Assembly: GCA_963741115.1 (NCBI GenBank)
Contig: CAVUGR010000008.1
Location: forward strand, 45,251 to 109,250
From: an uncultured Alphaproteobacteria bacterium
GTDB taxonomy: Bacteria > Pseudomonadota > Alphaproteobacteria > Rhizobiales > Xanthobacteraceae
Direction of reading: 5' to 3'
Length of the DNA stretch: 64,000 nucleotides
The position numbers and the translations under genes were made by a program. The notes under the pieces are model-generated. The model searched no databases, was not told where the DNA came from, and worked only from the letters and a program-made list of their open reading frames with translations. Positions 7,619-63,403 of this stretch are shown here, piece by piece (the stretch's first letter is position 1; the number at the start of each line of letters is the position of its first letter).

Positions 7619-7668
7619 GTGAAACTTGAGGCCCGTTTATAACGCATAGTTAGCCTTCGGACAGGGGC

Positions 7669-9812: not shown

Positions 9813-10407
9813 GCCGCAAATCCGTACTTGGATGGCCGGTGCGAATAGGCTTTGAAGCCGTAGACGCTGACGTCCTCACATTGTTGCCCAAGCGGAGCCG
9901 TTTGCCCACGCAGAGCCTTGGCCGCCTTGCAAAGGATCATGTCCTTTTGGACTCGTCCGATCACACCCGCTTTGTGCAGGCATCTGGCCTTCACGGCCAT
10001 CAACTCGGCCGATGATGTGTCCCTGATGGGGAAGATCAGATCGAGGTCGAGGTTGCGGTTCATGACGCCAGGACAAGTCGCGGGCCGCGAATCAGTTCCC
10101 GTGCAGACGCTCCCGAATCAAAAAATCCCTCTTTCAAGAGGTAACCCGCGCCGCACGGCATTACAAAATCTTGCAGCCGGCTAGTTGAATATTGCGAAGA
10201 ATCCATATTCACGGGAACAATTCTTAGCCGAGATGCTTTGTCCAATGACGGGATCACATATATGCCGCATTTGCCGTGCTCAAACGCGCGAACAGATCAA
10301 CTGTCGCCATCGTTTCCGACCAGCACTGGAATAATCCGTGCTTGGGGTCCTCAAAAACGATGCTGCCGATGATGTCGGCGCCGACAAAATTTCCCCGAAG
10401 GAAGCTG

Positions 10408-10887: not shown

Positions 10888-10903
10888 TTCGCTGTGCCCG
10901 CGC

Positions 10904-11923: not shown

Positions 11924-11945
11924 CTCCGCTCCGACCAGCCGAGTC

Positions 11946-15905: not shown

Positions 15906-16823
15906 ATGGGAACCACGCTTCAAGACAAGCTGAAGGCCGGGCGCTTCGTCATCACCGCGGAGGTAACGCCGCCGGTGTCGGCCGACCGCGGCGAATTGCT
16001 CGCCAAGGCGCTGCCGCTCAAGGGCCTCGCCGACGCCGTCAACATCACGGATGGCGCCGGCGCGCGTCCGCATCTCGGCGCGGTGACCGCGGCGGCGCTG
16101 CTGGTCGATTCCGGCATCGAGCCGGTACTTCAGCTCACCTGCCGCGACCGCAACCGCATCGCCCTGCAGAGCGACCTGCTCAGCGCCGCGGCCTCGGGCA
16201 TCCGCAATTTGCTGGTGTTGCGCGGCGACGACCCGAGCGCGGGCGACCAGCCCGACGCCAAGGCGGTGTTCGATCTCGATCCGCGCCAGCTTCTGGAAAC
16301 CGCGCGCCGGCTGCGCGATACCGGCGAACTTCCGTCCGGCCGCAAGGTCAGCGGCCGAACCGATTTCTTCCTGGGCAGCGCCGACAACCCGCTCGATCCG
16401 CAGCCCGGCTGGGAGCCGAAGGCGCTCGCCGCCAAGGTCGCGGCCGGCGCGCAATTCGTGCAGACCCAGTTCTGCATGGATGCCGGCGTCGTGCGCCGCT
16501 ATCTGGCGCGGCTCGAGGAGGCGGGGTTAGCCGGCAAGCTCAAGTTCCTGATCGGCATCGTGCCGCTGCGCTCGGCCAAGTCGGCGCGCTGGATCAAGGA
16601 GAAGCTGTTCGGCGCCATTATTCCCGACGCGATTATCGAGCGCATGGAGTGCAGCCCCGATCCGGCGGCCGAGGGCCGCCGCATCTGCATCGACATCGTG
16701 CGCGAACTTTCCGACGTTCCGAATGTCGCCGGCGTCCACATCATGGCGCCGGGCAACGACGCCGCGGTGCCCGACATCATCGTCGCGGCGCGCGATAGCG
16801 TCGCAAGGCCGGCGGCGGTTTAA
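15906..16823 (+). CDS. methylenetetrahydrofolate reductase (MetF/MTHFR)-like protein
   Basis: RFVITAEVTPP, QLTCRDRNR and QFVQTQFCMD motifs. ATG at 15906; the alternative upstream start at 15843 adds 21 aa. Divergent from the CoA-transferase operon. Confidence 0.7.
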   Translation: MGTTLQDKLKAGRFVITAEVTPPVSADRGELLAKALPLKGLADAVNITDGAGARPHLGAVTAAALLVDSGIEPVLQLTCRDRNRIALQSDLLSAAASGIRNLLVLRGDDPSAGDQPDAKAVFDLDPRQLLETARRLRDTGELPSGRKVSGRTDFFLGSADNPLDPQPGWEPKALAAKVAAGAQFVQTQFCMDAGVVRRYLARLEEAGLAGKLKFLIGIVPLRSAKSARWIKEKLFGAIIPDAIIERMECSPDPAAEGRRICIDIVRELSDVPNVAGVHIMAPGNDAAVPDIIVAARDSVARPAAV

Positions 16824-31660: not shown

Positions 31661-31793
31661 TCGCGGCGCGGGCTGTAGACGATTCGCGCCGGCCTCGTAT
31701 CTCCGATTGCCGAGGGCGCTATCTCTAGGCGAGGACGGCGCATATTCGCCGCTGCGCCAGCTGCTATATGATTCCAAACACGGAGCCTCCCCG

Positions 31794-32624
31794 ATGAACC
31801 AAATTACCCTGCTCATCACTACCGTTCTTGGCGCCATAGGCGGCCTGCTGTTCGTCAGCGGCCTTCTCATCCCCGGCATCGTCTTCGGCGTCCTCGCCGT
31901 GCTCACGCTCTATTCGCTCAAGATGGCGAACAACTGGGAGCGTTACGTCATCTTGCGCGCCGGCAAATTGTCGAGCGTGAAGGGACCGGGCCTGTTCGCG
32001 ATCATACCGGTCATCGACAGCATCGCCGCCGTCATCGACGAGCGCATCCAGACCACCGGCTTCAACGCCGAGCAGGCGCTCACCAAGGACACCGTGCCGG
32101 TCAATGTCGACGCCATCGTTTTCTGGCACGTGCACGACGCCCAGAACGCCGCGCTCAACATCGCCAATTACCGGCAGGCCATCGACCAGGTGGCGCAGAC
32201 GTCGTTGCGCGAAATGATCGGCTCCTCGATGCTCTCCGAGCTGTTGTCCGAGCGCAAGGTGGCGGACGAAGTCCTGCGCACCGAGATCGCGCACAAGACC
32301 GCGGAGTGGGGCATCTCGATCAACTCGGTCGAGATCCGCGACGTCGCCATCCCGGTCGCCTTGCAGGACGCCATGTCGCGCCAGGCGCAGGCCGAGCGCG
32401 AGAAACAGGCGCGCGTCATCTTGGGGTCCGCCGAGGCGGCGATCGCGGCGAAATTCGTCGAGGCGGCGGAGATCTACGGCAGCAACGCCGCCGCGCTGCA
32501 TCTGCGCGCCATGAACATCATCTACGAAACGACCAAGGAGCGCGGCGCCACCATTCTGATGCCGACCACCATGGTGGATTCCATGAGCGTGGCGCTGCCG
32601 GCCGCGTTCATGGCGCCGAAGTAG
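31794..32624 (+). CDS. SPFH/band 7 (stomatin/slipin-like) membrane protein
   Basis: N-terminal TM segment, an SPFH core, and a C-terminal coiled/Ala-rich region. Shine-Dalgarno GGAG before the ATG at 31794. Confidence 0.8.
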   Translation: MNQITLLITTVLGAIGGLLFVSGLLIPGIVFGVLAVLTLYSLKMANNWERYVILRAGKLSSVKGPGLFAIIPVIDSIAAVIDERIQTTGFNAEQALTKDTVPVNVDAIVFWHVHDAQNAALNIANYRQAIDQVAQTSLREMIGSSMLSELLSERKVADEVLRTEIAHKTAEWGISINSVEIRDVAIPVALQDAMSRQAQAEREKQARVILGSAEAAIAAKFVEAAEIYGSNAAALHLRAMNIIYETTKERGATILMPTTMVDSMSVALPAAFMAPK

Positions 32625-34586: not shown

Positions 34587-35888
34587 TCAATACCTGTTCG
34601 CGATCGGCAATTCCTCGGCCGGGAACAGCGAGATCAGGCGGCAGCCTTTGTCGGTGACCACGACCTCTTCCTCGATGCGCGCGGCGGAAAAGCCGTCGGT
34701 CGCCGGGCAATAGGTCTCGATCGCGAACACCATGCCTTCCACGATTTCGGTCGGGTGATCCATCGACACCACGCGCGAGATGATCGGCCGCTCGTGCAGG
34801 TTCAGGCCGAGGCCGTGCGCGAATTGCAGGCCGAAGGCCGTCATCTCGTCGGGAAAGCCGAACTCCTCCGCCTTCGGAAACACCTCGCAGATATGCGCGG
34901 TGCAGGCGCCGGGCTTGATGCGCTCGATCGCGTTGTCGAGCCATTCGCGCGCCTTCCTGTAGCAATCGTGCTGCGCCGGCGTGGCGCGGCCGACATTGAA
35001 GGTGCGGTAGTAGCAGGTGCGATAGCCCATGAAGCTTGCAGAATGTCGAAGAACGCCTGGTCGCCCGGGCCGGATCATGCGGTCGGTGAAGTTGTGCGGA
35101 TGCGGACTGCAGCGCTCGCCGGAGATGGCGTTGACCGCCTCCACGTCGTCGGAACCGTGCGTGTAGAGGAACTTGTTGACCTCGGCGACGATGTCGTTCT
35201 CGCGCACGCCCGGGCGCAGCATGTTGTTCACCAGGTCATAGGCGCCGTCCACCATGGCGGCGGCGCGGTTGAGCAGCGCGATTTCGTCGGATGACTTCAC
35301 CTCGCGTGCGCTCAGCATGACCTGCTGGCCGTCCTTGATCTTGAGCCCGGCTTTTTCGAGCTCGAACATCATCGGCGGCTCGATGATGTCGACGCCGATC
35401 GGCATCTTGGCGACGCCGGCGGCTTTCAGGATCGAGGCCATCTCCTCGGCATGGCGCTTCATCAGGCCGAAGGCGGGATCGACGGTGCCGCGCAACCCGA
35501 CCAGGCCGGCCTTGCAGTTTTCCGGCTTGAGCCAGGGCGAGTACAGCCGGTGATGCACCGCGGCCGAGCCGAAGTCCCACAGGATCGGATCGCCGCCGCG
35601 CATCAGCAGCGCCCAGCGCGACAGCTTGTCGCGCGCCCATTCGCCGATCTTGGTCGAGGTGACGTAACGGATGTTGTTGTCGTCGAACAGCAGCAGCGCG
35701 CCGAGGTCGGAGTTCTCGAGCGCCGCTTGCGCGCGGGCGAGCCGGTAGCGGTGCATGCGCCGGTAATCGACGCGCTCCTCGAAATCGACGCCCATGGTGC
35801 CGAGCACCGGCAGATGGCGGCCCCAGTTGTAGCGCGGGTTGATGTCCTCGGCGCGGATTTGCAGCGGGTCGCGCGTTCTCTCGTCCAT
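34587..35888 (-). CDS. M24 family metallopeptidase-fold protein with creatinase-type N-terminal domain (DddP-like)
   Basis: AGGGAGA Shine-Dalgarno before the ATG at 35888. The N-terminal LLLFDDNNIRYVTST motif region resembles DddP/creatinase. C-terminal pita-bread domain. Intact 433-aa frame. Confidence 0.7.
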   Translation of the reverse strand: MDERTRDPLQIRAEDINPRYNWGRHLPVLGTMGVDFEERVDYRRMHRYRLARAQAALENSDLGALLLFDDNNIRYVTSTKIGEWARDKLSRWALLMRGGDPILWDFGSAAVHHRLYSPWLKPENCKAGLVGLRGTVDPAFGLMKRHAEEMASILKAAGVAKMPIGVDIIEPPMMFELEKAGLKIKDGQQVMLSAREVKSSDEIALLNRAAAMVDGAYDLVNNMLRPGVRENDIVAEVNKFLYTHGSDDVEAVNAISGERCSPHPHNFTDRMIRPGRPGVLRHSASFMGYRTCYYRTFNVGRATPAQHDCYRKAREWLDNAIERIKPGACTAHICEVFPKAEEFGFPDEMTAFGLQFAHGLGLNLHERPIISRVVSMDHPTEIVEGMVFAIETYCPATDGFSAARIEEEVVVTDKGCRLISLFPAEELPIANRY

Positions 35889-36424: not shown

Positions 36425-36574
36425 CCACCCACCGCAAACGCTCCCGCGATCCCAATCAGCTCGCCAAGGCGGGCTGGAATTCAGGAGACGGCGTACCCGG
36501 TGCCGCTAAAGAATGCGGGCGGCGAAGCGTTGGCTTTTTCTTTATCCCTCCCCGCAAGCGAGGAGGGTAAGAAG

Positions 36575-37017
36575 CTACGCCGCCTCGACCACGCGACGCA
36601 GGGAGCTACGCAGATCCTGCGCGGCGGCTTCGCCATAGGCGCCTTCGAATTCCTTCTGCGCCTGCCGCCAGCGCGCGGCTGCTGTCTTGAACCGCGCTTG
36701 CCCCGCCTGGTCAGGCTGACCCTGCGGGTGCGGCCATCCGGCCCGGCGCCCGACCGCCACCAGCCGGTCGCGCTCGAGCGGTCGCAGCGCGCGGCCGAGC
36801 GCGGTGCGGTCCATGCACCATGGACTCGGCGAGCTTGCCGATCGGCATCGGCGCCGAGCCGGCTGAGCTTGGACAGGATCGAATATTGCGTGCTGCGCAG
36901 CCCTTCCTGCGCCAGATGCCGTCATAGATCTGGCTGAGGTGGCGCGCGGCCTGCCGCAAGGCCAGGCAGTTGCAGGGCGTCTGATCGGGCGCTTCGGGCG
37001 GGAGTCTTTTTCGGCAT
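36575..37017 (-). pseudogene. MarR family transcriptional regulator, about 2 frameshifts
   Basis: AGGA Shine-Dalgarno before the ATG at 37017 (MPKKTP...), then a shift (extra C) into the frame that carries a MarR-like block (DQTPCNCLALRQAARHLSQIYD). A winged-helix C-terminus (MDRTALGRALRPLERDRLVAV ... to the stop at 36575) is in a third frame. Confidence 0.7.
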
Positions 37018-37061
37018 AGCTCGCATTCCTGAACGGACGGGGCAACGGCTCTTGCCAATAT

Positions 37062-37105
37062 GTGCATATGCACGTATTAATGTCAAGAGAAACGTGCATA
37101 TGCAC
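37062..37105. promoter_or_regulatory. two copies of the perfect 12-bp palindrome GTGCATATGCAC (37062-37073 and 37094-37105; 32 bp centre to centre) in the marR-MATE divergent intergenic region; candidate MarR operators
   Basis: Seen directly. The first copy extends to the 16-bp palindrome ACGTGCATATGCACGT. Confidence 0.5.
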
Positions 37106-37128
37106 CTACTTGCGACGGAGCGCTTGCC

Positions 37129-38514
37129 ATGGATCCCGCGAACCCGAATGCTGCTGGAGGCGCCGGTCGGCGCGCACCATCGTGCGGCTGGCGCTGCCCA
37201 ATGTCGTCGTCATGGTGGTGCAGGCCTGCGATCGGCCTGATCGAGACCTATTTCGTCGCCAAGCTCGGCCTCGACGCGCTCGCCGGCATGGCGCTGGTGT
37301 TCCCGCTGTTCATGCTGCTGACGATGATCTCGGCCGGCGCCATGGGCGGCGGCATCCTCTCGGCCATCGCGCGCGCGCTCGGCGTCGGGCAATCGCGAGC
37401 ACGCCAATGCACTGGTCTGGTAGGCCGTCGTCATCACGGTCCTGCTCGGCGCGATCACCACCGTGCTGGCGTTGCTGTTCGGGCCGAAGCTCTACGCGCT
37501 GATGGGCGGCCGCGACGGCTCGCTCGCCGCAGCGGCGACTTATTCGAGCGATCGTTTTCGCCGGCGCCGTTCCGCTCTGGCTGTTCAACTCGTTCGCGGC
37601 CATGATCCGCGGCACCGGCAACATGTTCTTGCCGGCGTCGGTGATCAGCGCCGGCGCCTTCATTCTCATTCCGCTGTCGCCGCTGCTGATCTTCGGCCTC
37701 GGGCCGTTCCCGCAACTTGGCATCGCCGGCGGCGCCGATCGCGGTTCTCATCTATTACGTCGTCGGCTGCGCGATCTTCGCCGACCTACATCTGGTCCGG
37801 CCGCGGCGTGCTGCAAGCCGTCGCTCGATTCCGCCGCGCTGACCTGGGCGCCGATGCGCGAAATTCTGCGCGTCGGCGCGACCTCGTCGATCGTCAGCCT
37901 TTCGACCAATGTCACCATCGCGGTGGCGACCGGGCTCGCCGGTCTGATCGGCCCGGCCGCGGTCGCCGGTTACGGCACCGCCGTGCGGCTGGAATATCTG
38001 CTGGTGCCGCTGGTGTTCGGGCTGGGCGCGCCGGTCGCCGCCATGGTCGGCACCTCGATCGGCGCCGGCCGCAACGAGCGCGCGCTGCGCGTCGCCTGGA
38101 CCGGCGCGGCCATCGCCGTTCGGCTTGACCGAAGCGATCGGTCTTGCCGCCGCGTTGTTTCCCAACGCATGGTTGTCGCTGTTCGGCGACGACGCGAGCA
38201 TGCTCGCAGACCGGCACGCTCTATCTGCGCATCGTCGGTCCGTTCTACGGCTTTTTCGGCGGCGGGCTCGCGCTCTATTTCGCCTCGCAGGGCGCCGGCC
38301 GCGTCGGCTGGGCCATGATGGTCGCGGTGCTGCGCGTCGTCATCGCCGCCGGCGGCGGCTGGCTCGCGGTCACGCTGCTCGGCGGCAGTACCGGGCTGTT
38401 CGTCGCCCTGGCCGGAGCGCTGGTGATCTACGGGCTGCCAATGTCGTTGCGGTCGCCAGCGGCGTGTGGTTCAAGGCGCCCAAAGCGCCGGCGCTGGTGC
38501 CGCAAGCGTCATAA
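37129..38514 (+). pseudogene. MATE family efflux transporter, many frameshifts (at least 6)
   Basis: MATE-like TM segments (e.g. LIETYFVAKLGLDALAGMALVFPLFMLL) appear in all three forward frames between 37129 and 38514. No single frame is open for more than about 700 nt. Confidence 0.75.
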
Positions 38515-38523: not shown

Positions 38524-39000
38524 ATGAGCGAAACGAAAACGCGCCTTTATCTCGACGATCTTAAAGCCGGGCAAACGTTCCGCAGCCGGATGGTGACGAC
38601 GGTCGAAGATGCGGCGATCAAGACCTTCGCCACGGAGTTCGATCCGCAGCCGTTTCACCTGGATGACGCTGCCGCGCAGGCGACCATGTTCAAAGGGCTC
38701 GCCGCCAGCGGCTGGCACACCGCGGCAATGACCATGCAGCTTCTGGTCAACGACGGGCCGCCGCTCGCCGGCGGCATCATCGGTGGCGGCATGGACGAAT
38801 TGCGCTGGCCGCAAGCCGGTGCGGCCGGGCGACACACTGCGCATCGAATGCGAAGTGCTGGAAGTGCGCCCGTCGCGTCGCGCCCGGAGCAGGGCATGGT
38901 CAAGATGAAAACGACCACGCTCAACCAGAACGACGAGCCGGTGCAGGTTATGGTCGGCAACCTGATCGTGCCGCGCAAGCGGCGGCGGGCTACGCCGCAC
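38524..39000 (+). pseudogene. MaoC-like (R)-specific enoyl-CoA hydratase/dehydratase domain protein, frameshifted; 3' end approximate
   Basis: Hot-dog fold N-terminus (FATEFDPQPFHLDDAAAQATMFKGLAASGWHTAAMTM). The frame is lost near 38810 and partly recovered (GMVKMKTTTLNQNDEPVQVMVGNLIVPRK). Confidence 0.6.
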
Positions 39001-40260: not shown

Positions 40261-41883
40261 ATGGCTATCGCCGAAGCGCGCGCGGCAGAGCCGATCGCGC
40301 AGATTAGGCGCGGGAGTGCCGGTGGGCGCAATCCCACGCGATTACAATTTCGCCGCCGATGTGCTGCAGACGCAATCTCGATGCCGGCCGCGCCAACAAG
40401 CCGGCCTATATCGACGCGCGCGGCACGACGACCTACGGCCAGCTCGCCGATCGCGTCGCGCGCTTCGGCGCCGCGCTGCGCGGCCTCGGCATCAAGCGCG
40501 AGGAGCGCGTGCTGCTCGCGCTGCATCGACACCATCGACTGGCCGACCGCGTTTCTCGGCTGCCTGAAGGCCGGCATCATCGCCGTGCCGGTCAATACGC
40601 TGCTCACCGAAGACGACTACCGCTTCATGCTGGCCGACAGCCGCGCCAAATGCCTGGTGGTGTCGGAGGCGCTGTTTCCGAAATTCGAGAAGCTCATCAA
40701 GCAAAGCCCGACCTCGAGCATGTCATCGTCTCCGGCGACAATCCACACGGCTACCGGCTGTTCGAGGATCTGATCGGCGCCGACGAGCCCGAAGCCTTAC
40801 ACCGCGCCGACCACCTGCGACGACATGGCGTTCTGGCTCTACACCTCGGGCTCGACCGGCAAGCCGAAGGGCGCGGTGCATGTGCATGCCAGCCTGAAAC
40901 TCACCGCCGATCTTTACGGCACGCCGGTCGCCGGCATCAAGGAAAGCGACGTCTGTCTATTCGGTGGCGAAATTGTTTTTCGCCTACGGCCTCGGCAACG
41001 CCATGACGTTCCCGATGTCGGTCGGCGCCACCACGGTGCTGCTGGGCGACCGGCCGACGCCGGACGGCGTCGCGGCGCTGCTGCGCAAACATCCGGTCAC
41101 GGTGTTCTACGGCGTGCCGACCTTCTACGCCGCGTTCCTGGCCAGCCCGAACGCGCCGCAGAAGTCGCGAAGTGAAATTGCGCCGCTGCATTTCCGCCGG
41201 CGAGGCGCTGCCGGAAGGAAGTCGCGCAAGCACTGGCACGACCGTTACGGCGTGCGAGATTTCCGACGGCCTCGGCACCACCGAGATGCTGCACATCTAT
41301 CTGACCAACGTTCCGGGCGCGACCAAATACGGCACCACCGGCAAGCGCGGTGCCCGGCTACGAGATCAAGCTGATCGGCGAGGACGGCCAGCCGGTGAAG
41401 CACGGCGAGATGGGCGAGATGTATGCGCGCGGGCCGACCAGCTGCGATCATGTACTGGAACAACCGCGAGAAATCGCGCTCGACCTTCCAGGGCGAATGG
41501 ACGCGCTCCGGCGACAAATATATCGAGGACGCCGACGGCTATTACGTCTGCTGCGGCCGCGCCGACGACATGCTGAAAGTGTCGGGCATGTATGTCTCGC
41601 CGTTCGAGGTCGAGGCCGCGCTGTCGTCGCATCCCGGACGTGCTGGAAGCGGCGGTGGTCGGCTGGAACGACGAGCAGAAGCTGATCAAGCCGAAAGCCT
41701 TTGTCGTGCTCAAGCAGCCGGACAAGGCGAGCGATGCGCTCGCTGAAGGCGTTGCAGGAGCACGTGAAGCAAAAGCTTGCGCCGTTCAAATATCCGCGCT
41801 GGATCGAATTCCGCAAGGAACTGCCGAAGACGGCGACCGGCAAGATCCAGCGCTTCAAGTTGCGCGCGGAAGGACAGGCTTGA
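40261..41883 (+). pseudogene. aryl-CoA ligase of the benzoate/4-hydroxybenzoate-CoA ligase (BadA/HbaA) family, at least 10 frameshifts
   Basis: GGGAGG Shine-Dalgarno before the ATG at 40261. AMP-binding motifs (YTSGSTGKPKGAVHVH; GEMGEMYARGP; WTRSGDKY; [10 protein letters not shown]) are spread over all three frames across 1.6 kb. Between shifts the sequence looks undamaged. Confidence 0.8.
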
Positions 41884-41889
41884 CGCGCA

Positions 41890-42699
41890 ATGGCTCTGGC
41901 AGATTCCGGCTTCCTCTCCATCGGCACGCAGCGCCTCGAATACCGCATGATCGGGCCGCGGCCGGACGAAGGCCCGACGATCGTGATGCTGCATGAGGGC
42001 CTCGGCTGCGTCGGCCTGTGGGGCGATTTTCCCGACAAATTGCAGGCGGCGACCGGTGCCGGCGTGTTCGTCTATTCGCGCGCGGCTTACGGAAAATCGA
42101 GCCCCGTCACGTTGCCGCGCCCGCTCAGTTTCATGCATGACGAAGCGCGCGACGCGCTGCCGCGCCTGCTCGACGCGATCGGCTTCCAGCGCGGGCTGCT
42201 GATCGGCCACAGCGACGGCGCGTCGATCGCCGCGATCTATGCCGGCAGCCATCAGGATCATCGCGTCGGCGGCCTGGTGCTGATCGCGCCGCATTTCTTC
42301 ACCGAGCCGTCCGGCCTCGCGGCCATCGCCGAAACGCGCAAGGCCTACGAGAGCGGTGAATTGCGCGCGCGCCTGTCGCGCTGGCATGCCGACGTCGACA
42401 ACGCGTTCAACGGCTGGTGCGATGCCTGGCTCGATCCCGATTTCCGAACGTGGAACATCACCGACGAGCTCGCCTATATCCGCGTGCCGATGCTGATCGT
42501 GCAGGGCGAGGACGACCAATACGGCACGGTGAAGCAGATCGAGGTCGCGCAGACGGAATGCTACTGCCCGGTCGAGGTCGTGCTGCTGCCCGGCGCCAAG
42601 CACTCGCCGCAGCGCGACGCGCCGGAGGCGACGCTGAAGGTGATCGTGGAGTTTGTCGGGCGGGTGTTGCGCGCCAATCGGTGGCGGTGTGCCGCGTAA
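41890..42699 (+). CDS. alpha/beta hydrolase fold protein
   Basis: Intact 269-aa ORF 6 nt after the ligase stop. Nucleophile elbow GHSDG. No frameshift, despite at least 10 in the adjacent gene. Confidence 0.8.
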   Translation: MALADSGFLSIGTQRLEYRMIGPRPDEGPTIVMLHEGLGCVGLWGDFPDKLQAATGAGVFVYSRAAYGKSSPVTLPRPLSFMHDEARDALPRLLDAIGFQRGLLIGHSDGASIAAIYAGSHQDHRVGGLVLIAPHFFTEPSGLAAIAETRKAYESGELRARLSRWHADVDNAFNGWCDAWLDPDFRTWNITDELAYIRVPMLIVQGEDDQYGTVKQIEVAQTECYCPVEVVLLPGAKHSPQRDAPEATLKVIVEFVGRVLRANRWRCAA

Positions 42700-42795: not shown

Positions 42796-44005
42796 CTACT
42801 CCGCCGCCTGCTTGGCCGCGCTGCCATGCGCGGAGACGAGATAATCCATCGCCGCCTGCACGCCGCCCTTCTTGTGCGGAATGCCGGCCAGCGACAGCGC
42901 CATCTCGGTGATGCCGAGCGCGCCGATCAGCATGCCGTCGTTGATGTCGCCGAGATGGCCGATGCGGAAATACTTGGCGGTATAGGCGCCGAAGCTCGCA
43001 CCGTAGGAGATATTGAAAGTATCGAGCGCCAGCGCGCGGAACGTGTCGGCGTCGTGACCCTCGGGCACCATGACCGCGGTGATGGTCGGTGAGTACTGAC
43101 TGGCGTTCTTGTTGAGATTCTCCAGTCCCCAGGCCTTGACGGCGCGGCGGGTGGCTTCCGCCAGCCGGTCGTGACGGGCGAACACGTTGTCGAGACCTTC
43201 CTCGTGCAGCATCTCGATGCCGGCCGCGAGGCCGTGCAGCATCTGCGTCGCCGGGCGTGTAGGGGAAGAAGCCGATCTTGTTCATGTTCAGCATGTCGTC
43301 CCAGGCGAAGAACGACTTCGGAATCTTGGAGGTCTTGTTGGCGGCCAACGCCTTGTCGCTCACCGCGTTGAACGACATGCCGGGCGGCATCATCAGGCCC
43401 TTCTGCGCGCCGCCGATGGAGACGTCGACGCCCCATTCGTCATGCCGGTAGTCGGCGGAGGCAAGCGAGGAAATGGTGTCGACCATCAGCAGCGCCGGAT
43501 GGCCGGCGGAGTCGATCGCCTTGCGAATCTCCGGGATCGGCGCCAGCGCTCCGGTAGAGGTCTCGTTGTGAAGAACGCAGACCGCCTTGATCTCTTTGCT
43601 CTTGTCCTCGCGCAATTTGGCTTCGATGACTTTGGGATCGGTGCCCTGGCGCCAGTCGGTGGTAATGAACTCAGGCTTCAGGCCGATGCGCTCGGCCATT
43701 TTCTTCCACAGCGTGGCGAACTGGCCGGTCTCCACCATCAGCACTTTGTCGCCGGGCGACAGCGTGTTGACGAGGGCGGCTTCCCAGGCGCCGGTGCCGG
43801 TCGCGGTGTAGATGATGACCGGGTTGGTGGTCTTGAAGATGGTCTTGATGCCCTCGAGGCACTTCTTGGCGAGCTTGGAGAATTCCGGTCCACGGTGGTC
43901 GATGATGGGCGTATCCATCGCCCGCAGCACGCGGTCGGGCAGCGGGGTGGGGCCCGGAATTTGCAGGAAATGTCGGCCTACCGGACGCGAGGAATTCTTA
44001 GCCAT
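42796..44005 (-). pseudogene. class V aminotransferase (serine-glyoxylate / alanine-glyoxylate aminotransferase family), one frameshift near 43245
   Basis: AGGAG Shine-Dalgarno before the ATG at 44005. The N-terminal 250 aa are in ORF 42734-44011 and the C-terminal 148 aa in ORF 42796-43242. One inserted G explains the junction (FFPYTP|ATQMLHGLAAGIEMLHEEG). Confidence 0.8.
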
Positions 44006-44098: not shown

Positions 44099-47000
44099 AT
44101 GAATGCGACATTGCGGTCAAGCGGTTTTCCGCACGGCAGATACGCTCCCCATGTATTGGCAGATCTGGTCACGACAAGGACTGATGCCGTGGCGGTGGTG
44201 ATGCCCGGCCTGGAACGGCGGCTGAAGGCCGAGTTGAGCGGGGACGTGCAGTTCGACCGCTACACGCGGGGCCGTTACGCGACCGACGCCTCGCATTACC
44301 AGATCACGCCGGTCGGCGTGGTCGCGCCCCGCACCATTGAAGAAGCCGATCGGGCGATAGCCATTGCCCGGGCCGAGGGCGCCACCGTGCTGGCGCGCGG
44401 CGGTGGCACCTCGCAGGCCGGACAGACCGTCGGCGAATCGCTGGTCGTCGACTGCTCGAAATACCTGACCCGCATCCTCGACCTCGACGTCAAGCGGCAG
44501 CGCTGCACGGTCGAACCCGGCATCGTGCTCGACGATCTCAACCGCGCGCTGAAACCGCATGGGCTGTGGTTCCCGGTCGACATCTCCACCGCCTCGCGCG
44601 CAACAATAGGCGGCATGGCCGGCAACAATTCCTGCGGCGGCCGCTCGATGCGCTACGGCACCATGCGCGACAACGTCATCTCGATCGAGGCGCTGCTGGC
44701 GGACGGCACGCTCGGCCATTTCGGCCGCATCGGCGGCAATCTCAATGACGTGCCGGCGCTGCTGCGGCCGCTGGTCAAGGACCTGCTGGCGATCGGCACG
44801 CGCGAGGCCGGCGAGATCGCCGCGCGTTTTCCGCGGGTCCAGCGCCGCGTCGGCGGCTACAATCTCGACGCGCTGGTGCCGTTCAAGAACGACGTCAACC
44901 TCGCGCATATACTGGTCGGCGCCGAGGGCACGCTCGGCTTCTCCACCCGGATCGAATTGAAACTGGCGCCCTTGATGGGCCGCCGCGCGGTCGGCGCCTG
45001 CCACTTCGGCAGTTTCCACGGCGCGATGGATGCCGCCCAGCACATCGTGCGGCTCGGGCCGATCGCGGTCGAGTTGATCGACAGCACGCTGATCGAACTC
45101 GCGCGCGAGATCGCGATGTTCGGGCCGACGCTGGAAAAATTCGTGCGCGGTACGCCGGCCGCCGTCCTGCTGGTCGAGTTCGGCGAGGACGATCATGAGG
45201 CGAATCTCGACGGCCTGCGGAATTTGAAGGGCTTGATGGGCGATCTCGGTTTCGGCTTCGACCAGAGCGGCGCCAAATGGGGCGGCGTGGTCGAGGTGCT
45301 CAACGCCGAATTGCAGGCCGCCATCACCGACGTGCGCACCTCCGGCCTCAACATCATGATGTCGATGAAGGCGGAGGGAAAACCGGTCTCCTTCGTCGAG
45401 GATTGCGCGGTGCCGCTCGAGCATCTTGCCGCCTACACCGCGCGGCTGACGCAAATCTTCGAGAAGCACGGCACCCGCGGCACCTGGTACGCGCATGCCG
45501 GCTCCGGCTGCCTGCATGTGCGCCCGGTGCTCAATCTGCGGCAGGAGAAGGACGTGCATGCCATGCGCGAGATCGCCGAGGAGGCGTTCGCCATGGTGCG
45601 CGAATACAAGGGCTCGCATTCGGGCGAGCACGGCGACGGTCTGGTGCGCTCGGAATTCAACGAGGTGATGTTCGGCTCGCGGCTGGCGCGCGCCTTCGAA
45701 GAGGTTAAGGACCGTTTCGATCCGAACGGGCTCTACAATCCCGGCAAGGTCGTGCGGCCGCCGAAATTCGACGATCGCAGCCTGTTCCGTTACGCGCCCG
45801 ATTATCACGGCGAGCAGATCGAAACCCAGCTCGACTGGTCGGCCTATTCCGGCGTCGGCGGCGGTTTTCAGGGCGCGGTCGAGATGTGCAACAACAACGG
45901 CGCCTGCCGGAAGATGGCGGGCGGCGCCATGTGCCCGAGCTATCGCGTCACCCGCGACGAGCGCGACGTCACGCGCGGACGCGCCAATACGTTGCGGCTG
46001 GCGATCTCGGGCCAGCTCGGGCCCGACGCGCTCGCCTCCGACGAGATGGCGGAAACGCTCAAGCTCTGCGTCTCCTGCAAGGCCTGCCGGCGCGAATGCC
46101 CGACCGGCGTCGACATGGCGCGCATGAAAATAGAAGTGCAGGCCGCGCGCGCCAAAAAAAATGGCATCACGCTGCACGACCGGCTGGTCGGCTGGTTGCC
46201 GCGTTACGCGCCGCGCGCGGTGCGCGCGCCGTGGCTGTTCAATCTGCGCGACAATATCGGCGTTCTGCGACGAGCTGTCCGAAACCTTCGCCGGCTTCTC
46301 CGCGCGGCGCAGCCTGCCAAAATGGCGCAGCGATACCTATCGCGACCGTTCCGACTGGGCCTATGCCCCGGCGGATGCGAGCCGCGCCGTCGCGCGAGGT
46401 CGTGCTGTTTGCCGACACCTTCAACCGCTATTTCGAGCGCGAGAATCTCGATGCCGCGTTGCGCGTGCTCACGGCCGGCGGCTATCGCGTGCACGCGGTT
46501 CTGCCCAAGGATGGCGACGAACGCCCGCTCTGCTGCGGCCGCACTTTTCTGGCAGTCGGCCAGGTCGAGGAGGCGCGGCGCGAAATGGCGCGCACGCTTG
46601 ATGCGCTGGCGCCTTATGCCTTGCGCGGCGTTCCGGTCATCGGGCTGGAGCCGAGCTGCCTGTTCACTTTCCGCGATGAAATGCCGGCTCTGCTCAAGAC
46701 CGACGCGGCCAACGCGCTGTCAGGGCAGGCGCTGTTGCTGGAGGAATTCCTCGCCCGCGAGCAGGCGCAAGGCCAGCTCAACCTGCCGCTTGGTCCGCTG
46801 CCGCGCAAGGCGCTGCTGCACGGCCATTGCCATCAGAAAGCATTCGACGCCATGGGCGCGGTCGAGAGCGTGCTCAAGCTGATCCCCGAGCTTTCGGTCG
46901 AGACGGTGGAATCGAGCTGTTGCGGCATGGCCGGCAGTTTCGGCTATAACGCCGACACGATCGACGTCTCGCTCAAGATGGGCGAGTTGTCGCTGTTGCC

Positions 47001-47146
47001 GGCGGTGCGCAAGGCGCCGCGCGATGCGCTGATCGTCGCCGACGGCACCTCGTGCCGGCATCAGATTCACGACGGCAGCGGGAGGGCAGCCGCCCACGTA
47101 GCGACCGTGCTGGCGATGAGCGTTGCGGCGGCATCGGGAAGGCTGA
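44099..47146 (+). pseudogene. FAD-binding and (Fe-S)-binding domain-containing oxidoreductase (GlcD-like FAD domain + 4Fe-4S/CCG domains; YdiJ-like), 2-3 frameshifts, 3' end approximate
   Basis: About 720 aa in a continuous frame from 44099 (FAD-binding PCMH domain; 4Fe-4S CxxCxxCxxxCP). The frame is lost near 46265 and regained near 46385 (VVLFADTFNRYFERE ... CCGMAGSFGY ... DGTSCRHQI). No in-frame stop before the next gene, which implies a further shift near 47110-47146. Confidence 0.75.
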
Positions 47147-47200: not shown

Positions 47201-48239
47201 ATGCCGCTGCCTTTGCTGCCGACCTCGCTGGTCGGCTCCTACGCGCAGCCGGATTGGCTGATCGACCGCAAGAAGCTCGCCGGCCGCTTTCCGCCGCGCG
47301 TGCGCGCCAAGGAGCTCTGGCGGGTCGCGCCGGAATTCCTCGACCAGGCGCAGGACGACGCCACGCTTGCTGGCCATCCGCGATCAGGAGCGCGCCGGGC
47401 TCGACATCATCACCGACGGCGAGATGCGGCGCGAAAGCTATTCCAACCGCTTCGCCACCGCGCTCGAAGGCGTCGACATCGACAATCCCGGCACGGCGCT
47501 CGATCGCTCCGGCCATCCCAATCCGGTGCCGCGCGTCACCGGCAAGATGCGCCGCAAGCATCCGGTCGAAGTGCGCGACCTCGAATTCCTGCGCGCCAAT
47601 ACCGACCGCATGATCAAGATCACGGTGCCCGGCCCGTTCACCATGTCGCAGCAGGCGCAGAACGATTTCTACAAGGACGAGCAGGAGATGGCGCTCGATT
47701 ATGCCGCGGCGGTGAACGCCGAGATCAAGGATCTGTTCGCGGCCGGCGCCGACGTGGTGCAGATCGACGAGCCTTATATGCAGGCGCGGCCCGGAGAAGG
47801 CGCGCCAGTATCGGCCTCAAGGCGCTGAATGCCGCGCTCGACGGCGTCAAAGGCACGACCGCGGTGCATATCTGCTTCGGCTATGCCGCGATCATCCATG
47901 TGCGGCCGGAGGGCTATTCGTTCCTGCCCGAGTTTGCCAATTCGCAGGTCGCAGCAGGTCTCGATCGAGACCGCGCAATCCAAGCTCGATTGCGCGGTGC
48001 TGGAGAAATTGCCGGGCAAGACCATCATTCTCGGTGTGCTCGATCTGTCCGACATGGCGATCGAGACGCCTGAGATGGTCGCCGCGCGCATCCGCCGCGC
48101 GCTGCCGCACGTGCCGGCGGAGCGCATCGTCGTCGCGCCCGATTGCGGGCTGAAATATCTGCCGCGCGAAGTTGCCTATGGGAAGATGTGCGCCATGGTC
48201 GCGGGCGCAAAAATCGTGCGCGCCGAGCTTTCCAAATGA
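47201..48239 (+). pseudogene. MetE C-terminal-domain-like protein, paralog B, about 4 frameshifts
   Basis: From the ATG at 47201 (MPLPLLPTSLVGSYAQPDWL). Fragments 47367-47828 and 47829-48239 are in other frames. About 75% identical to the intact tandem paralog C over aligned pieces. Confidence 0.75.
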
Positions 48240-49264
48240 AATTGTTTCCTACTTCTCTCGTCGGCTCCTATCCACAGCCCGAATGGCTGATCGACCGCGC
48301 GCGGTTGTCGAAGATGGTACCGCGCGTGCGCATGCAGGATCTTTGGCTGGGCGATCCACAGCACCTAGAAGCCAAGCAGGATGAGGCGACGCTGGAAGCG
48401 ATCCGCGACCAGGAGCGCGCCGGGCTCGACATCATCACCGACGGCGAGCAGCGGCGCGAAAGCTATTCCAATCGCTTTGCCACCGCCCTCGAAGGTGTCG
48501 ACACCGATAATCCCGGTACGACGATCAACCGCAGCGGCAAGCCGATCCCGGTGCCGCGCGTCACCGGAAAAATCCGCCGCAAATATCCGGTGGAAATTCG
48601 CGACATGCGGTTTCTGCGCGCCAATACTAAGAAGCCGGTGAAGATGACGGTGCCCGGCCCCTTTACCATGTCGAAGCAGGCGCAGAACGAATTCTACAAA
48701 AGCGAAGAAGAGATGGCGCTCGATTATGCCGCCGCGGTCAATGCCGAGATCAAGGACCTGTTCGCAGCCGGCGCCGACATCGTTCAGATCGACGAACCGT
48801 GGATGCAGCAACATCCCGACAAAGCGCGCCAATACGGTCTAAAGGCGCTCGACCGTGCGCTCGACGGCGTCACCGGCACGGTCGCGGTGCATCTATGCTT
48901 CGGCTATGCCGCGGTGGTGCACGAGAAGCCAGCCGGTTACTCGTTCCTGGGCGAGCTTGAGGGGTCGAAAGCCGCGCAAGTGTCGATCGAGGCGGCGCAG
49001 CCCAAGCTCGATCTTGGCGTTCTGGAGAAGCTGCCGGGCAAGACCATCGTCCTCGGCGTCATCGATCTGTCCGACATGACGGTGGAGACGCCGGAGATTG
49101 TCGCCGCGCGCATTCGACGCGCGCTGCCGCACGCCCCGGCCGAACGCATCGTGGTGGCGCCCGACTGCGGCATGAAATATCTGAGCCGCGATGTGGCGTT
49201 CGGAAAACTGCAGGCGATGGTGGCGGGCGCGAATATCGTGCGCGCCGAAATCGGAAAAAAGTGA
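48236..49264 (+). CDS. MetE C-terminal-domain-like protein (methionine synthase II-like, about 340 aa), paralog C, intact
   Basis: The ATG at 48236 overlaps the paralog B stop (ATGA). Continuous 342-aa frame. Zn-ligand context typical of the MetE/UroD-like fold (HLCFGY ... APDCGMKY). Confidence 0.8.
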   Translation: MKLFPTSLVGSYPQPEWLIDRARLSKMVPRVRMQDLWLGDPQHLEAKQDEATLEAIRDQERAGLDIITDGEQRRESYSNRFATALEGVDTDNPGTTINRSGKPIPVPRVTGKIRRKYPVEIRDMRFLRANTKKPVKMTVPGPFTMSKQAQNEFYKSEEEMALDYAAAVNAEIKDLFAAGADIVQIDEPWMQQHPDKARQYGLKALDRALDGVTGTVAVHLCFGYAAVVHEKPAGYSFLGELEGSKAAQVSIEAAQPKLDLGVLEKLPGKTIVLGVIDLSDMTVETPEIVAARIRRALPHAPAERIVVAPDCGMKYLSRDVAFGKLQAMVAGANIVRAEIGKK

Positions 49265-49300
49265 CCCGCCCGGATGGGGACTAACCGGGCGGGTCGTTCG
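49264..49300. terminator. inverted repeat ACCCGCCCGG-N12-CCGGGCGGGT between convergent genes; candidate bidirectional terminator
   Basis: 10-bp perfect stem immediately after the metE-like C stop. The T-tract is weak. Confidence 0.35.
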
Positions 49301-49345
49301 GATCGGCGCTGGGATGGACGGGGGTGGCGCCGATCACGATTGAGA

Positions 49346-49549
49346 TCAGTAGGGGACGACGTCGCAAGTCTTGATGGTGAGAACATTGCCAGCATTGTCG
49401 GCGCTATCGGTGAAGCGGCATTCGTCGTAGCCGGCATTGACCCGAAAGGCCGGATCGGAATAGCCGCTTGAGACGGCACCGGCGTTCAGCGTGGCGGCCA
49501 AGGTGACGGCGAGCGTCAGCGCGGCGGCGATGGTGTTGGATCGGGTCAC
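49346..49549 (-). CDS. hypothetical small secreted protein (67 aa, signal peptide, 2 Cys)
   Basis: MTRSNTIAAALTLAVTLAATLNAGA signal-like N-terminus. No homolog recognised. Confidence 0.35.
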   Translation of the reverse strand: MTRSNTIAAALTLAVTLAATLNAGAVSSGYSDPAFRVNAGYDECRFTDSADNAGNVLTIKTCDVVPY

Positions 49550-52342: not shown

Positions 52343-53673
52343 TCACATTACGTAATGTATCGCCGCGCCGAGCGCGGCCATTGCCAAAACGACTTCGATC
52401 AGGCTGCGGTGCAGCCCGAAGGCTAGCACCGCGGCGATAGCCGCCAGCGCCGCCGCACGGATATCGAGCGCCAGCGGATCGAAGGCGTACCAGCGCAGCG
52501 GGCCGGCGTGCATTTCGGTGACTTTGCCGAACAGTACATGCAGCGCGAACCAGACCGACAGATTGAGGATGACGCCGACCACCGCCGCGGTGATGGCGGC
52601 GAGCGCGCCCGACAGATTTCGGTTGGCGCGCAGCCGCTCAACGAAAGGCGCGCCGGCAAATATCCACAGCATCGAGGGAACGAATGTCACCCATGTCGTC
52701 ATCGCGGCGCCGAGCACGCCGGCGGTGATGGGAGAAAACGGCGGCGCCTCGCGAAACGCCGCGAGGAAGCCGACGAATTGTGTGACCAGAATAAGCGGTC
52801 CCGGCGTGGTTTCGGCCAAGCCCAAGCCATCGACCATCTCGGGCGCGCTCATCCAGCCGTAGGTCTCCACTGCCTGCTGCGCCATATAGGCGAGCAGCGC
52901 ATAGGCACCGCCGAAACTCACCACCGCGAGTTTGGAAAAAAGAATCCGATGCTTGTAATGACATGGTGCGGGCCGAGAATCAGTGCCGCAAGCAAGACCG
53001 GGGTCCACCATGCCAGCAATCCCACAAGCGACGCCACGACGAATTGCCGCCAGCGGCCTTTCGCCGGTGGTGGCACGCTTTCCATTTTGGCGGCGATGCC
53101 GAGCCGCTCGGGCGAGCGGCGCGCGACCAAATATCCGATGAGCGCGGCGGCTGCGACGATCAAGGGAAATGGCAGTGCCAGAAAGAAGATGCCAACAAAG
53201 GCCGCCGCCGCCAAGGCGAGCAGCACCGAAGTCTTGAGCGCGCGCTTGCCGATGCGGATGAGCGCCTCGATCACGATCACCAGCACGGCAGCCTTGATGC
53301 CGAATAGAATTCCGTCCACGACCGAGATGCCGCGCCCGAGCGCATAGAGCAGGCTCAATCCCAGCATCACGAAGGCGCCCGGCAGCACGAACAGGATGCC
53401 GGCCGTCAGGCCGCCGCGCACGCCGTGCAGCAGCCAGCCCAGATAAGTGGCGAGTTTTTGCGCCTCCGGCCCGGGCAGCAGCATGCAGAAATTGAGTGCG
53501 TGCAGGAAACGCTGCTCTTCCACCCACTTCTTCTCGTCGACCACGACGCGATGCATCAATGCGATCTGCGCCGCCGGCCCGCCGAAATTGATGCAGCCGA
53601 TCCCCAGCCAGACCTTGAAGGCTTCGCCGAAGCTCGGAGGCGGGCTGGCTTCAGTTGGTGCCATGGTGGTCAT
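52343..53673 (-). pseudogene. chrA: chromate transporter ChrA (CHR family, two-domain), one frameshift near 52960
   Basis: The N-terminal CHR half ([23 protein letters not shown]...) is in ORF 52918-53724. The C-terminal half ([15 protein letters not shown]...) is in ORF 52343-53527. The ATG at 53673 overlaps the upstream gene stop (ATGA). Confidence 0.75.
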
Positions 53674-55347: not shown

Positions 55348-55592
55348 AGAAGTCGCTCCCGGAGCGAAAGGGCGCAGCGCTTGGATGGATGTCATCTGAC
55401 GGGGAGGCGGCATGGTCCCCGGGTTATGTCGAATTGTATTTCTGAGATCGCTCAGCCCGCAAACAGCACAGGTCCCCTCCGTGAACGAAGGAGACGGTGC
55501 TTGGGCTCGCAAGCCTTGGAGAAATGGGGCGACCGCCGCAGACCCCACTCGAAAACTGTAGCGCAACTGCGGATTTGCAGCAAGCCGTTCGA

Positions 55593-56333: not shown

Positions 56334-56475
56334 GGGTCGCTCCCAACATGAAGTGACCAGCGCTTGGATGCGATTCTCTGGATGGATGGCTGCCATCTCC
56401 AGGGGAGGCTGCTATGTCCCCTGCCAGCGCTGTATAGCAATCCACGACTAATCGAACCAGCCAGATTTATCCGCT

Positions 56476-62426: not shown

Positions 62427-63403
62427 ATGGCGGGCGAAAAGCCGGACGTATTGCTGGTTGGAAGCAGGAAGCCCGTTATCGTCGGCGGCCTCGAATCCGA
62501 AGGTCAATCTGCATTACCTGCTCGAGGCCAAGGATCAGGATGCCTTCATAAAATCAATCGGCGACAAAATCCGCGCAATCGCGGTCGCTTATACGCCGAA
62601 CAAGGTCGATGCCGCTTTCATGCAGAAATTCCCCAAGCTCGAGCAGATTTCGAGCTTCGGCGTCGGCTATGACCATATCGACGCTAAATGGGCGGGCGCG
62701 CATGGCATCATCGTCACCAACACGCCGGAAGTGCTCAACGAGGAAGTCGCCGACACCGCGCTCGGACTTCTGCTCTGCACGGTGCGGGAGTTCCCGCAAT
62801 CCGACCGCTATGTGCGCGCCGGTAAATGGCCGCAAGCAGCAATATCCGCTCACCAAGGCGACGCTGCGCAACCGCACCGTCGGCATGGTCGGCATGGGCC
62901 GCATCGGCAAGGCGATCGCGCGCCGTCTCGAGGCGTTCGGCGTGCCGGTGGTCTATCACAGCCGCAATCCGCAAGCCGGCGTCGAGTACAAGTACTATCC
63001 CAAGCTGGTCGACATGGCGCGCGATGTCGACACGCTGATGGTGATCGTGCCGGGCGGGCCGGCGACGGCGAACATGATCAATGCCGAGGTGCTCAAGGCG
63101 CTCGGCCCGGACGGCATTCTCATCAACATGGCGCGCGGTTCGGTGGTCGATGAGCCGGCATTGATCGCGGCGCTTAAAGACCGCACGATCTATTCCGCCG
63201 GCCTCGATGTGTTCGCCAAGGAACCGCAGGTGCCGAAAGAACTTATCGAGATGGATCACGTCGTGCTATTCCCGCATCTCGGCTCTTCGACCGAAGTGAC
63301 GCGGGCTGCGATGGATCAACTCGTGGTCGACAATATTCTGGCATGGGTGGCCGGCAAGGCGCCCCTGACACCGGTGTCGGAGACGCCGCCGAAACGTGCA
63401 TAG
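62427..63403 (+). pseudogene. D-isomer-specific 2-hydroxyacid dehydrogenase (glyoxylate/hydroxypyruvate reductase-like), 2 frameshifts
   Basis: From the ATG at 62427. Frame changes near 62500 and 62840. GMVGMGRIGKAIARRL NAD-binding motif and the catalytic R/E/H region are present. Confidence 0.75.

Follow-up and report, generated by a model that had tools for sequence, protein, structure and literature searches.

The 64,000-nucleotide stretch of DNA analysed here (hereafter the window; contig CAVUGR010000008.1, positions 45,251 to 109,250, from an uncultured alphaproteobacterium of the Xanthobacteraceae) carries three genes, A, B and C, whose products are single-domain relatives of the core of cobalamin-independent methionine synthase (MetE) and putative zinc-dependent thiol S-methyltransferases. 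B and C represent a widespread family, of whose characterised relatives MesD is the closest, yet by the profile and neighbourhood evidence given below its members would be neither MetE nor MesD, while A is of a second subfamily, distant from B and C. Homologs of B and C recur in operons for aromatic ring cleavage. From this gene context, we consider it possible, with a probability of roughly 45%, that A, B and C demethylate a methylated substrate, probably a methoxy-aromatic one, in a pathway-specific manner that depends on Zn and homocysteine.

A tandem pair of MetE-like genes and a distant paralog

The three genes are the following.

47201..48239, plus strand: gene B, core-MetE of the B type; PF01717 matches on its fragments; about 345 amino acids after four single-base insertions are taken out
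48236..49264, plus strand: gene C, core-MetE of the C type; intact open reading frame (ORF) of 342 amino acids, PF01717
38990..40164, minus strand: gene A, distant core-MetE paralog of the "cobalamin-independent methionine synthase II" type; 391 amino acids by three-frame reconstruction, with insertions and deletions (indels) mapped against L007:710-1885

Gene C extends from the ATG at 48236 to the stop at 49264, and its product matched PF01717 (Meth_synt_2) over profile positions 1-322 of 324 (E 1e-38, 133.9 bits). Gene B begins with the ATG at 47201 behind a Shine-Dalgarno-like GGAGGA and ends with the TGA at 48237-48239; the stop of B and the start of C share an ATGA, which was read directly in the sequence. 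With both ends in place, the head-to-tail arrangement described in the initial annotation is borne out. As assembled, B is spread over three frames, the frame being broken three to four times, and its fragments scored 67.5 and 49.7 bits against PF01717, for which the gathering score is 21 bits. When corrected, B is 75% identical to C and 88% identical to its ortholog (L007:8943-9974) in the locus L007 of a Pseudolabrys sp., which served as the intact short-read reference.

The third copy was found, as annotated, on the opposite strand. A starts with the ATG at 40164, has its stop at 38990-38992 and is readable solely by hopping frames. Its fragments in the window are too broken for Pfam scoring; the L007 ortholog, to which the corrected A is 80% identical, scored 62.4 bits on PF01717. 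NCBI names the orthologs of A "cobalamin-independent methionine synthase II family protein", the nearest solved structure is the YxjG/H-like 1YPX with 36 bits only, and the identity between A and C is 29%. The earlier view of three paralogs, each of about 340 amino acids and comprising only the catalytic barrel, thus needs to be divided: the single barrel applies to all three, whereas the length applies to B and C but not to A, which is of another subfamily. Genes resembling A (38-49% identity) were observed near B-type genes in several Hyphomonadaceae and in other loci.

A match to the Rhizobiales-2 RNA family (49263-49362, minus strand; 42.8 bits versus a gathering score of 40, E 0.02-0.12) begins one base inside the 3′ end of C, on the strand opposite to this gene.

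The active site is retained in proteins that differ from MetE and MesD

In MetE, zinc is bound by H641, C643, E665 and C726, and homocysteine by S433, E484 and D599, which in MetE as in MesD contact its carboxyl and amino groups (Price et al. 2021, PMC7857596). Upon alignment, all four zinc ligands and the three homocysteine-binding residues were found in C and in the corrected forms of A and B, which answers favourably the check for the His, Cys, Glu and Cys ligands proposed in the initial annotation. We compared 96 sequences, namely members of the B/C family together with six A-like/YxjG-like paralogs and MesD, and each of the seven positions was kept in 94-96 of them, the replacements being two Glu-to-Asp changes and two gaps at the Ser.

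The closest solved structure for C is 3RPD (MesD), with 199 bits and E 1e-57, and B and C are each 37% identical to it; identities to plasmid-borne MesD genes by tblastn were about 38%. On the MesD equivalog NF006589 (cut-off 392), C scored 256.1, the L007 ortholog of B 260.1 and that of A 62.3 bits; 3RPD itself scored 703.1 bits, confirming NF006589 as a MesD model. Price et al. assigned MesD by an identity of about 55% or more to ACIAD3523 (PMC7857596). The values of 37-38% to these MesD sequences suggest that B and C would lie below this level. According to the same authors, MesD is nearly always adjacent to DUF1852 (MesX), the partner that defines it functionally (PMC7857596). We searched 90 loci (1.57 Mb) by tblastn with the MesX of Agrobacterium pAspH13-3a as the query and obtained no match at E < 0.3 in the window or in the 89 other loci except for the positive control, a true MesD on an Agrobacterium plasmid, which adjoins DUF1852. 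DUF1852 was also missing from the listed Pfam families of the neighbouring genes in the survey described below.

The other curated models gave a similar picture. The score on TIGR01371 (MetE) was 100 bits against a cut-off of 930, and that on PF08267 (Meth_synt_1) 18.9 bits against 27, so that the N-terminal barrel is lacking. Scores on the corrinoid core-MetE models were 125 versus 258 (PRK00957), 97 versus 399 (PRK01207) and 236 versus 406 bits (PRK04326). A, B and C fell under the cut-off of every curated methionine-synthase equivalog, in agreement with the earlier proposal that they are not canonical methionine synthases. Neither a cobalamin nor an S-adenosylmethionine (SAM) riboswitch was detected in an Rfam gathering search of the whole window or in a permissive search of 38.4-49.5 kb. 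A weak match to PF01208 (URO-D) was also seen, and orthologs are called "uroporphyrinogen decarboxylase family protein" at NCBI. Fusions that might indicate a partner were sought and discarded: the longer representatives (P0266, P0338, P0273 and others) had only the one Pfam domain and resemble fusions made by frameshifts.

Compared with known systems, B and C share with MesD/MesX (PMC7857596; 3RPD; NF006589) the single barrel of about 340 amino acids, the absence of a folate-binding N-terminal domain, the identical zinc and homocysteine residues and the occurrence in aerobic bacteria; they differ in the 37% identity, in scores of 256-260 versus 392 bits, in the lack of a nearby DUF1852 and in their catabolic operons, and A reaches only 62 bits. 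With MetE (TIGR01371) they have in common the catalytic C-terminal barrel, C aligning to residues 434-761 of the T. maritima enzyme, and the Zn-thiolate chemistry, whereas all three proteins (342-391 amino acids) are without the N-terminal barrel; characterised core enzymes do not use 5-methyltetrahydrofolate. MesA, MesB and MesC (PMC7005905, PMC7857596) are likewise minimal single-domain proteins that transfer a non-folate methyl group to homocysteine, but they belong to methanogens and Wood-Ljungdahl anaerobes and take the methyl group from corrinoid proteins, unlike the aerobic-type soil lineages that host B and C. The YxjG/YxjH type (1YPX; PRK06233/PRK06520) consists of single-barrel MetE relatives of about 370-390 amino acids and includes the nearest solved relative of A, and similar paralogs flank a B-type gene in locus L036; however, A has only 36 bits on 1YPX, is 24% identical to the YxjG-like proteins of L036 and scores far under the cut-offs.

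Homologs of B and C recur in operons for aromatic ring cleavage

Homologs of B and C with 63-82% identity were found in Alpha- and Betaproteobacteria, Acidobacteriota, Actinomycetota and others, and soil metagenomes hold thousands of single-domain MetE relatives with 84-98% identity to C. We surveyed the neighbours at 69 loci without a window-type cluster, using gene models filtered by the G+C content of third codon positions (GC3) and Pfam scans, which yielded 209 neighbour proteins. Among the 79 immediate neighbours were 16 Peripla_BP_6 proteins, 9 intradiol dioxygenases (Dioxygenase_N plus Dioxygenase_C), 4 FAD_binding_3 monooxygenases and 4 DUF5996 proteins. The 130 wider neighbours comprised AMP-binding ligases, IclR regulators, UbiD decarboxylases, family III CoA-transferases and three VanA_C proteins, which resemble vanillate O-demethylase. 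No B12-binding or corrinoid-protein family ranked among the 25 commonest Pfam families in the 209 proteins, and GCV_T was not among the most frequent neighbour families.

An intradiol dioxygenase stood directly beside the B/C homolog at 10 of the 69 loci, and seed searches placed one within 10 kb at 5 more. Seven of these ten are alphaproteobacterial C-type operons with the order substrate-binding protein, MetE-like gene, dioxygenase, the genes often overlapping or lying within 55 bp of each other; the remaining three are from Acidobacteriota, and in two of them (L044 and L072) the dioxygenase is on the opposite strand and converges on the MetE-like gene. Class III extradiol dioxygenases of the LigB type occur near B/C homologs in L036, L042 and L046, accompanied by an RraA-like aldolase in the two of these loci that are from Neorhizobium; further neighbours are a VdcC-like UbiD (identity 88-100%) in about 7 loci and UbiX in 7. 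Among cultured isolates, plasmid pUSP2 of Aminobacter sp. MSH1 has a tight operon of a CocE/NonD hydrolase, a B/C-type gene, a citryl-CoA lyase, a CaiB CoA-transferase and an extradiol dioxygenase. Plasmids of Roseomonas haemaphysalidis and Pseudoroseomonas cervicalis carry, in this order, FAH, a tripartite tricarboxylate transporter (TTT) binding protein, an intradiol dioxygenase, an ABC transporter, an oxidoreductase, NTF2 and a B/C-type gene. At least four different gene arrangements, from no fewer than two phyla, show the association with aromatic operons, these contexts being not fully independent, as related genomes share operons.

In L036, from an alphaproteobacterial metagenome-assembled genome (MAG), four MetE-like genes stand in a row (8874-13267, plus strand), three of them YxjG-like and one of the B type. 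This row, an extreme instance of stacked paralogs in aromatic surroundings, is about 1.3 kb downstream of a LigB-type dioxygenase that is, according to the gene model, fused to an oxidoreductase domain.

A proposed role in demethylation and its alternatives

It is the embedding of the B/C family in catabolic ring-cleavage operons that makes substrate-specific demethylation the best reading. The zinc site (His-x-Cys, Glu, Cys) would activate the thiol of homocysteine, which the conserved Ser, Glu and Asp would hold, and the thiolate would accept a methyl group directly from a pathway-specific substrate, most likely the methoxy group carried by an aromatic acid or phenol of the lignin type. An aryl methyl ether is the likeliest donor because the family is found just upstream of enzymes acting on vicinal diols and near aromatic-acid ligases, decarboxylases and transporters. 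Methionine would be formed, along with a demethylated diol on which ring cleavage can follow. The substrate would vary among A, B and C, and neither folate nor a corrinoid nor MesX would be needed, the reaction serving catabolic demethylation instead of housekeeping methionine synthesis. The initial annotation had likewise suggested substrate-specific methyl transfer; its demethylation part gains support from the profiles, the missing MesX and the aromatic operons, and its folate part does not (see below). The stronger proposal, also drawn from the gene context, that the B/C family and perhaps A form a further, not previously described class of aromatic O-demethylase, being cofactor-independent, of MetE fold and acting by Zn-homocysteine attack on lignin-derived aryl methyl ethers, is tentative and in our estimation rather doubtful.

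The tetrahydrofolate (THF)-dependent aryl O-demethylases LigM and DesA of Sphingobium, which have the GcvT fold, remove methoxy groups non-oxidatively and with few cofactors, upstream of ring-cleavage dioxygenases. They are functional analogues of the proposed role, but differ from A, B and C in fold, without homology, and in the acceptor, which is THF and not a thiol. BHMT/Bmt and MmuM (PF02574) pass a methyl group straight from a nutrient to Zn-activated homocysteine, catabolically in the case of glycine betaine (PMC12478193), but have an unrelated fold and onium donors.

Several points weigh against the demethylation proposal. The literature searched on MesD/MesX, core-MetE, MetE-like proteins and O-demethylases holds neither a biochemical or genetic characterisation of the B/C family nor a description of a demethylase of this kind. 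More than half of the B-type loci have no aromatic genes nearby, and the cluster in the window itself is without a ring-cleavage dioxygenase, its link to aromatics being the family of its CoA ligase and the homology to the other operons. The known O-demethylases are Rieske or P450 oxygenases or use THF (LigM) or Co(I) corrinoids, and we know of no precedent for the attack of an aryl methyl ether by a Zn-thiolate. VanA-like O-demethylase genes near three loci could mean that the MetE-like enzyme does something else there, conservation of 63-82% across phyla would fit a central metabolic role as well, and the aminotransferase and the FAD/FeS dehydrogenase of the cluster are not accounted for by the proposal. 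Furthermore, a stoichiometric output of methionine in catabolism demands costly recycling of homocysteine; the catabolism of betaine of the BHMT type is a precedent for such a methionine-forming route (PMC12478193).

As an alternative, B and C, and perhaps A, would be housekeeping or backup cobalamin-independent methionine synthases that work in the manner of MesD, with an endogenous donor made by a protein whose gene lies elsewhere. In favour of this, no solved structure is closer than MesD and no curated family scores higher, every zinc and homocysteine residue is kept, identity across phyla is high (63-82%), many loci have no consistent neighbours, and "Mes-like" genes of aerobic Alphaproteobacteria have been discussed as possible second synthases (PMC12366255). 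We nevertheless regard this role as unlikely: the scores of 256-260 bits are under the MesD cut-off of 392, no locus has a DUF1852 within 10 kb, whereas MesD almost always adjoins one (Price et al.), B12 and SAM riboswitches are lacking, and there are two to three paralogs per catabolic cluster, tightly spaced or overlapping with dioxygenase and dehydrogenase genes. In P. inhibens, split-MetH mutants need methionine despite a Mes-like gene, which may not be of the B/C type, and a bmt mutant shows residual growth only (PMC12478193, PMC12366255).

Onium compounds are chemically the easiest donors for a Zn-homocysteine thiolate, as BHMT/Bmt exemplify, and the proteins might therefore be homocysteine methyltransferases in the MetE fold that act, like BHMT and MmuM, on dimethylsulfoniopropionate (DMSP), S-methylmethionine, betaine or an aromatic betaine. 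The best curated match of the M24 hydrolase that follows A in relatives is the DMSP lyase DddP, and the CoA ligase, MaoC protein and hydrolase of the cluster could handle an acrylate-like product. Yet the DddP score (108 versus 600) is far under the cut-off, the ligase falls firmly within the benzoate-CoA ligase family, the recurrent partners of B and C are ring-cleavage dioxygenases and UbiD decarboxylases and not betaine or DMSP genes, and the lineages come from soil and not from the sea, which makes onium donors quite improbable. We give still less credence to the view that the proteins are no methyltransferases at all, but metal enzymes of the UROD/MetE fold that act on hydroxy-aromatic acids, by non-oxidative decarboxylation or thiol conjugation, and feed catechol or hydroxyquinol to the dioxygenase. 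The weak PF01208 match and the NCBI naming would accord with such enzymes, as would the adjoining intradiol dioxygenases, whose substrates have no carboxyl group; against them stand the UbiD-type decarboxylases already present in several such loci and the 37% identity to MesD, whose role as a methionine synthase is genetically proven.

No link was found between the MTHFR-like gene and the MetE-like genes

A gene of the methylenetetrahydrofolate reductase (MTHFR) family had been put forward as a possible partner that supplies or accepts the one-carbon unit.

15906..16823, plus strand: divergent MTHFR-family gene; PF02219, 119 bits

The PF02219 match confirms that the gene is present. It falls short of the MetF equivalogs (TIGR00676, 65 versus 294 bits; NF006396, 186 versus 453 bits) and is a lone plus-strand gene between CoA-transferase and molybdenum-hydroxylase genes on the minus strand, at a distance of 22 kb to A and 31 kb to B. 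Of the 85 loci searched, one (L074) has a homolog that lies no more than 10 kb from a gene of the B/C or A type. On the grounds of distance, unrelated neighbours and this single locus, we rejected the link to the MetE-like genes as unsupported, and with it the suggested folate partner. In that locus, from a Terricaulis sp., the homolog (L074:4289-5138, minus strand; 61-63% identity) is less than 5 kb from a B-type gene, and an A-like fragment is present at the edge of the locus.

Organisation of the cluster in the window and its relatives

The window has a G+C content of 64%, and its nearest relatives are Pseudolabrys/Xanthobacteraceae MAGs with 81-90% identity over the region. The genes around A, B and C are listed below.

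34596..35888, minus strand: M24-family hydrolase; PF00557; full-length match to NF043017 (DddP), 108 bits versus a cut-off of 600
38524..38990, plus strand: MaoC-like hydratase domain gene; PF01575, 4e-11
40261..41884 (start approximate), plus strand: benzoate-CoA ligase family, divergent from A; ortholog L007:1968-3674
41884..42699, plus strand: alpha/beta-fold hydrolase, intact; Abhydrolase_1/6 on the ortholog, PcaD-like matches weak
42796..44004, minus strand: class V aminotransferase, BhcA/serine-glyoxylate-like; PF00266; NF045640 (BhcA) 460 bits versus a cut-off of 650 (ortholog)
44099..47144 (3′ end inferred), plus strand: fused FAD-linked oxidase and Fe-S protein (OX), a YdiJ/GlcD-GlcF-like 2-hydroxyacid dehydrogenase; FAD_binding_4, FAD-oxidase_C, Fer4_8

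The ligase is about 87% identical to its L007 ortholog after removal of the indels, and this ortholog is a member of the TIGR02262 family (778.6 bits versus a cut-off of 375). The hydrolase is a possible thioesterase or lactonase. The dehydrogenase, whose ortholog scored 522 bits on NF049975 (YdiJ; cut-off 1350), is the first gene of an OX-B-C unit, and in relatives a gap of 4 nt separates it from the next gene.

A common order was observed in 13 related loci and in L084 and L085: A on the minus strand, ligase and hydrolase on the plus strand, aminotransferase on the minus strand, and dehydrogenase followed by B and/or C on the plus strand. Downstream, TctCBA, DctPQM or NMT1-type transporters are usual, and a GntR/FCD regulator is present in some. 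The C-type gene alone follows the dehydrogenase in L005, L006, L084 and L085, the B-type gene alone in L025 and L070, and both do so in other genomes, as in the window; B and C may be redundant or different in substrate.

The M24 gene comes next after A in L004, L009 and L083, sometimes with a glutathione S-transferase (GST) gene in between, whereas in the window it lies behind MATE and MaoC DNA. The 7.2-Mb chromosome OY970184.1 has the ligase and the A-GST-M24 unit without dehydrogenase-B-C. These arrangements suggest that the ligase and A-GST-M24 form one module. The cluster is modular and conserved in Xanthobacteraceae/Pseudolabrys-like soil bacteria, with carboxylate transporters beside it. 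The MaoC gene is present in L084 and missing in L004, L009 and L070; of the ligase/MaoC/hydrolase cluster originally annotated, all three genes exist, but MaoC varies among relatives and was set aside as an accessory gene and not a fixed member. The segment 36560-38990 (plus strand), with a heavily frameshifted MATE-like efflux gene and the MaoC-domain gene, is not at this position in L004 or L009, which suggests that the MATE and MaoC DNA was inserted into the A-M24 unit in this lineage.

Frameshifts in A and B are most likely errors of the assembly

We mapped the indels by aligning the window to L007.

Gene B: four single-base insertions (~47365, 47790, 47811, 47950) and a 3-nt in-frame insertion near the start
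Gene A: eight single-base insertions and three small deletions
CoA ligase: 12 single-base insertions and one deletion
Aminotransferase: one single-base insertion, at 43251
Dehydrogenase: 2-3 single-base insertions and a 3-nt in-frame deletion
Hydrolase: no single-base indels; a 3-nt in-frame deletion near the start
Gene C: no single-base indels; in-frame differences confined to the two ends
Examples of frame-split genes across the window: 5291-7630 (minus), 16869-19111 (minus), 19924-20822 (plus), 36560-38449 (plus), 40261-41884 (plus), 52346-53631 (minus) and 62500-63367 (plus)

All four bases are found among the insertions, most of which lie outside homopolymer runs. With the indels removed, the ratio of non-synonymous to synonymous substitution rates (dN/dS) was 0.10 in B, 0.26 in A and 0.15 in the ligase; C had 0.08, and the remaining genes 0.12-0.19. 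Purifying selection on the broken genes is thus like that on the intact ones, and neither A nor B had premature in-frame stops. The same kind of frame break affects many unrelated genes of the window, and in those split genes for which an ortholog could be compared, the cause was a random single-base insertion outside homopolymers. The long-read relatives L001 and L002 are fragmented too, at other places, whereas every cluster gene is intact in short-read MAGs and in two high-quality long contigs. The window looks like an unpolished long-read assembly, and the frameshifts in A, B and their neighbours are most likely errors of a noisy assembly. B had been annotated as frameshifted and C as intact: the latter stands, and the breaks in B are real in the assembly, but as biology they are most likely an artefact; nor is the damage peculiar to B, A being broken even more.

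If A and B were instead true pseudogenes, decaying duplicates beside a functional C, one could point to the sequence as given, with 4 frameshifts in B, more than 8 in A and none in C, to the uneven spread of the indels (about 7 per kb in A and the ligase compared with about 1 per kb in the other cluster genes), and to the relatives that have only one of B or C. Local coverage may be a cause of the uneven density. Bacterial gene decay is biased towards deletions, and almost all the changes here are random +1 insertions. Similar breaks occur in unrelated genes of the window and, elsewhere placed, in L001/L002, the genes are intact in short-read relatives, and dN/dS without premature stops is like that of the intact neighbours. 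Pseudogenisation of A and B, to which we attach very little probability, was thus rejected on dN/dS and indel type. Both genes were treated as most likely functional and mis-assembled, because true pseudogenes with 4-12 indels each would not hold a dN/dS of 0.1-0.26. Given the assembly noise, pseudogene calls from this window are therefore unsafe.

A GST gene at 30908-32621 (plus strand) is seemingly split by a frameshift, its C-terminal part being joined in frame to an SPFH/Band-7 protein; this joining is probably another assembly artefact.

Other features of the window

Two chrB-b RNA motifs (RF03086) were detected at 55374-55421 and 56357-56422, both on the minus strand, with 51.5 and 40 bits (gathering score 36.5). 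They precede two paralogous membrane-protein genes, and TauE-family genes are found at syntenic loci; ChrB/rhodanese and split chromate-transporter genes adjoin. At 23785-24996 (minus strand), an ORF of 404 amino acids has a strong coding signal and no NCBIfam match, and is in an operon with NMT1-type ABC transporter and enoyl-CoA hydratase-like genes (assigned by eye).

Implications for the family

Single-domain MetE relatives are very common in aerobic bacteria; databases label them as methionine synthase or uroporphyrinogen decarboxylase, and MesD is the only one of them with a genetically shown role. We observed that a MesD-like family without MesX recurs in aromatic ring-cleavage operons of at least two phyla, cultured isolates included. 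If the proposed demethylation is true, these proteins would provide a new enzymatic route for lignin demethylation, in which a catechol, hydroxyquinol or gallate-type diol would be handed to the adjoining ring-cleavage dioxygenase. A widespread mis-annotation, by which B12-independent methionine synthesis is predicted too often, would be corrected as well, and the methoxy carbon of lignin would be connected without intermediary to the methionine/SAM cycle of soil bacteria that are abundant.

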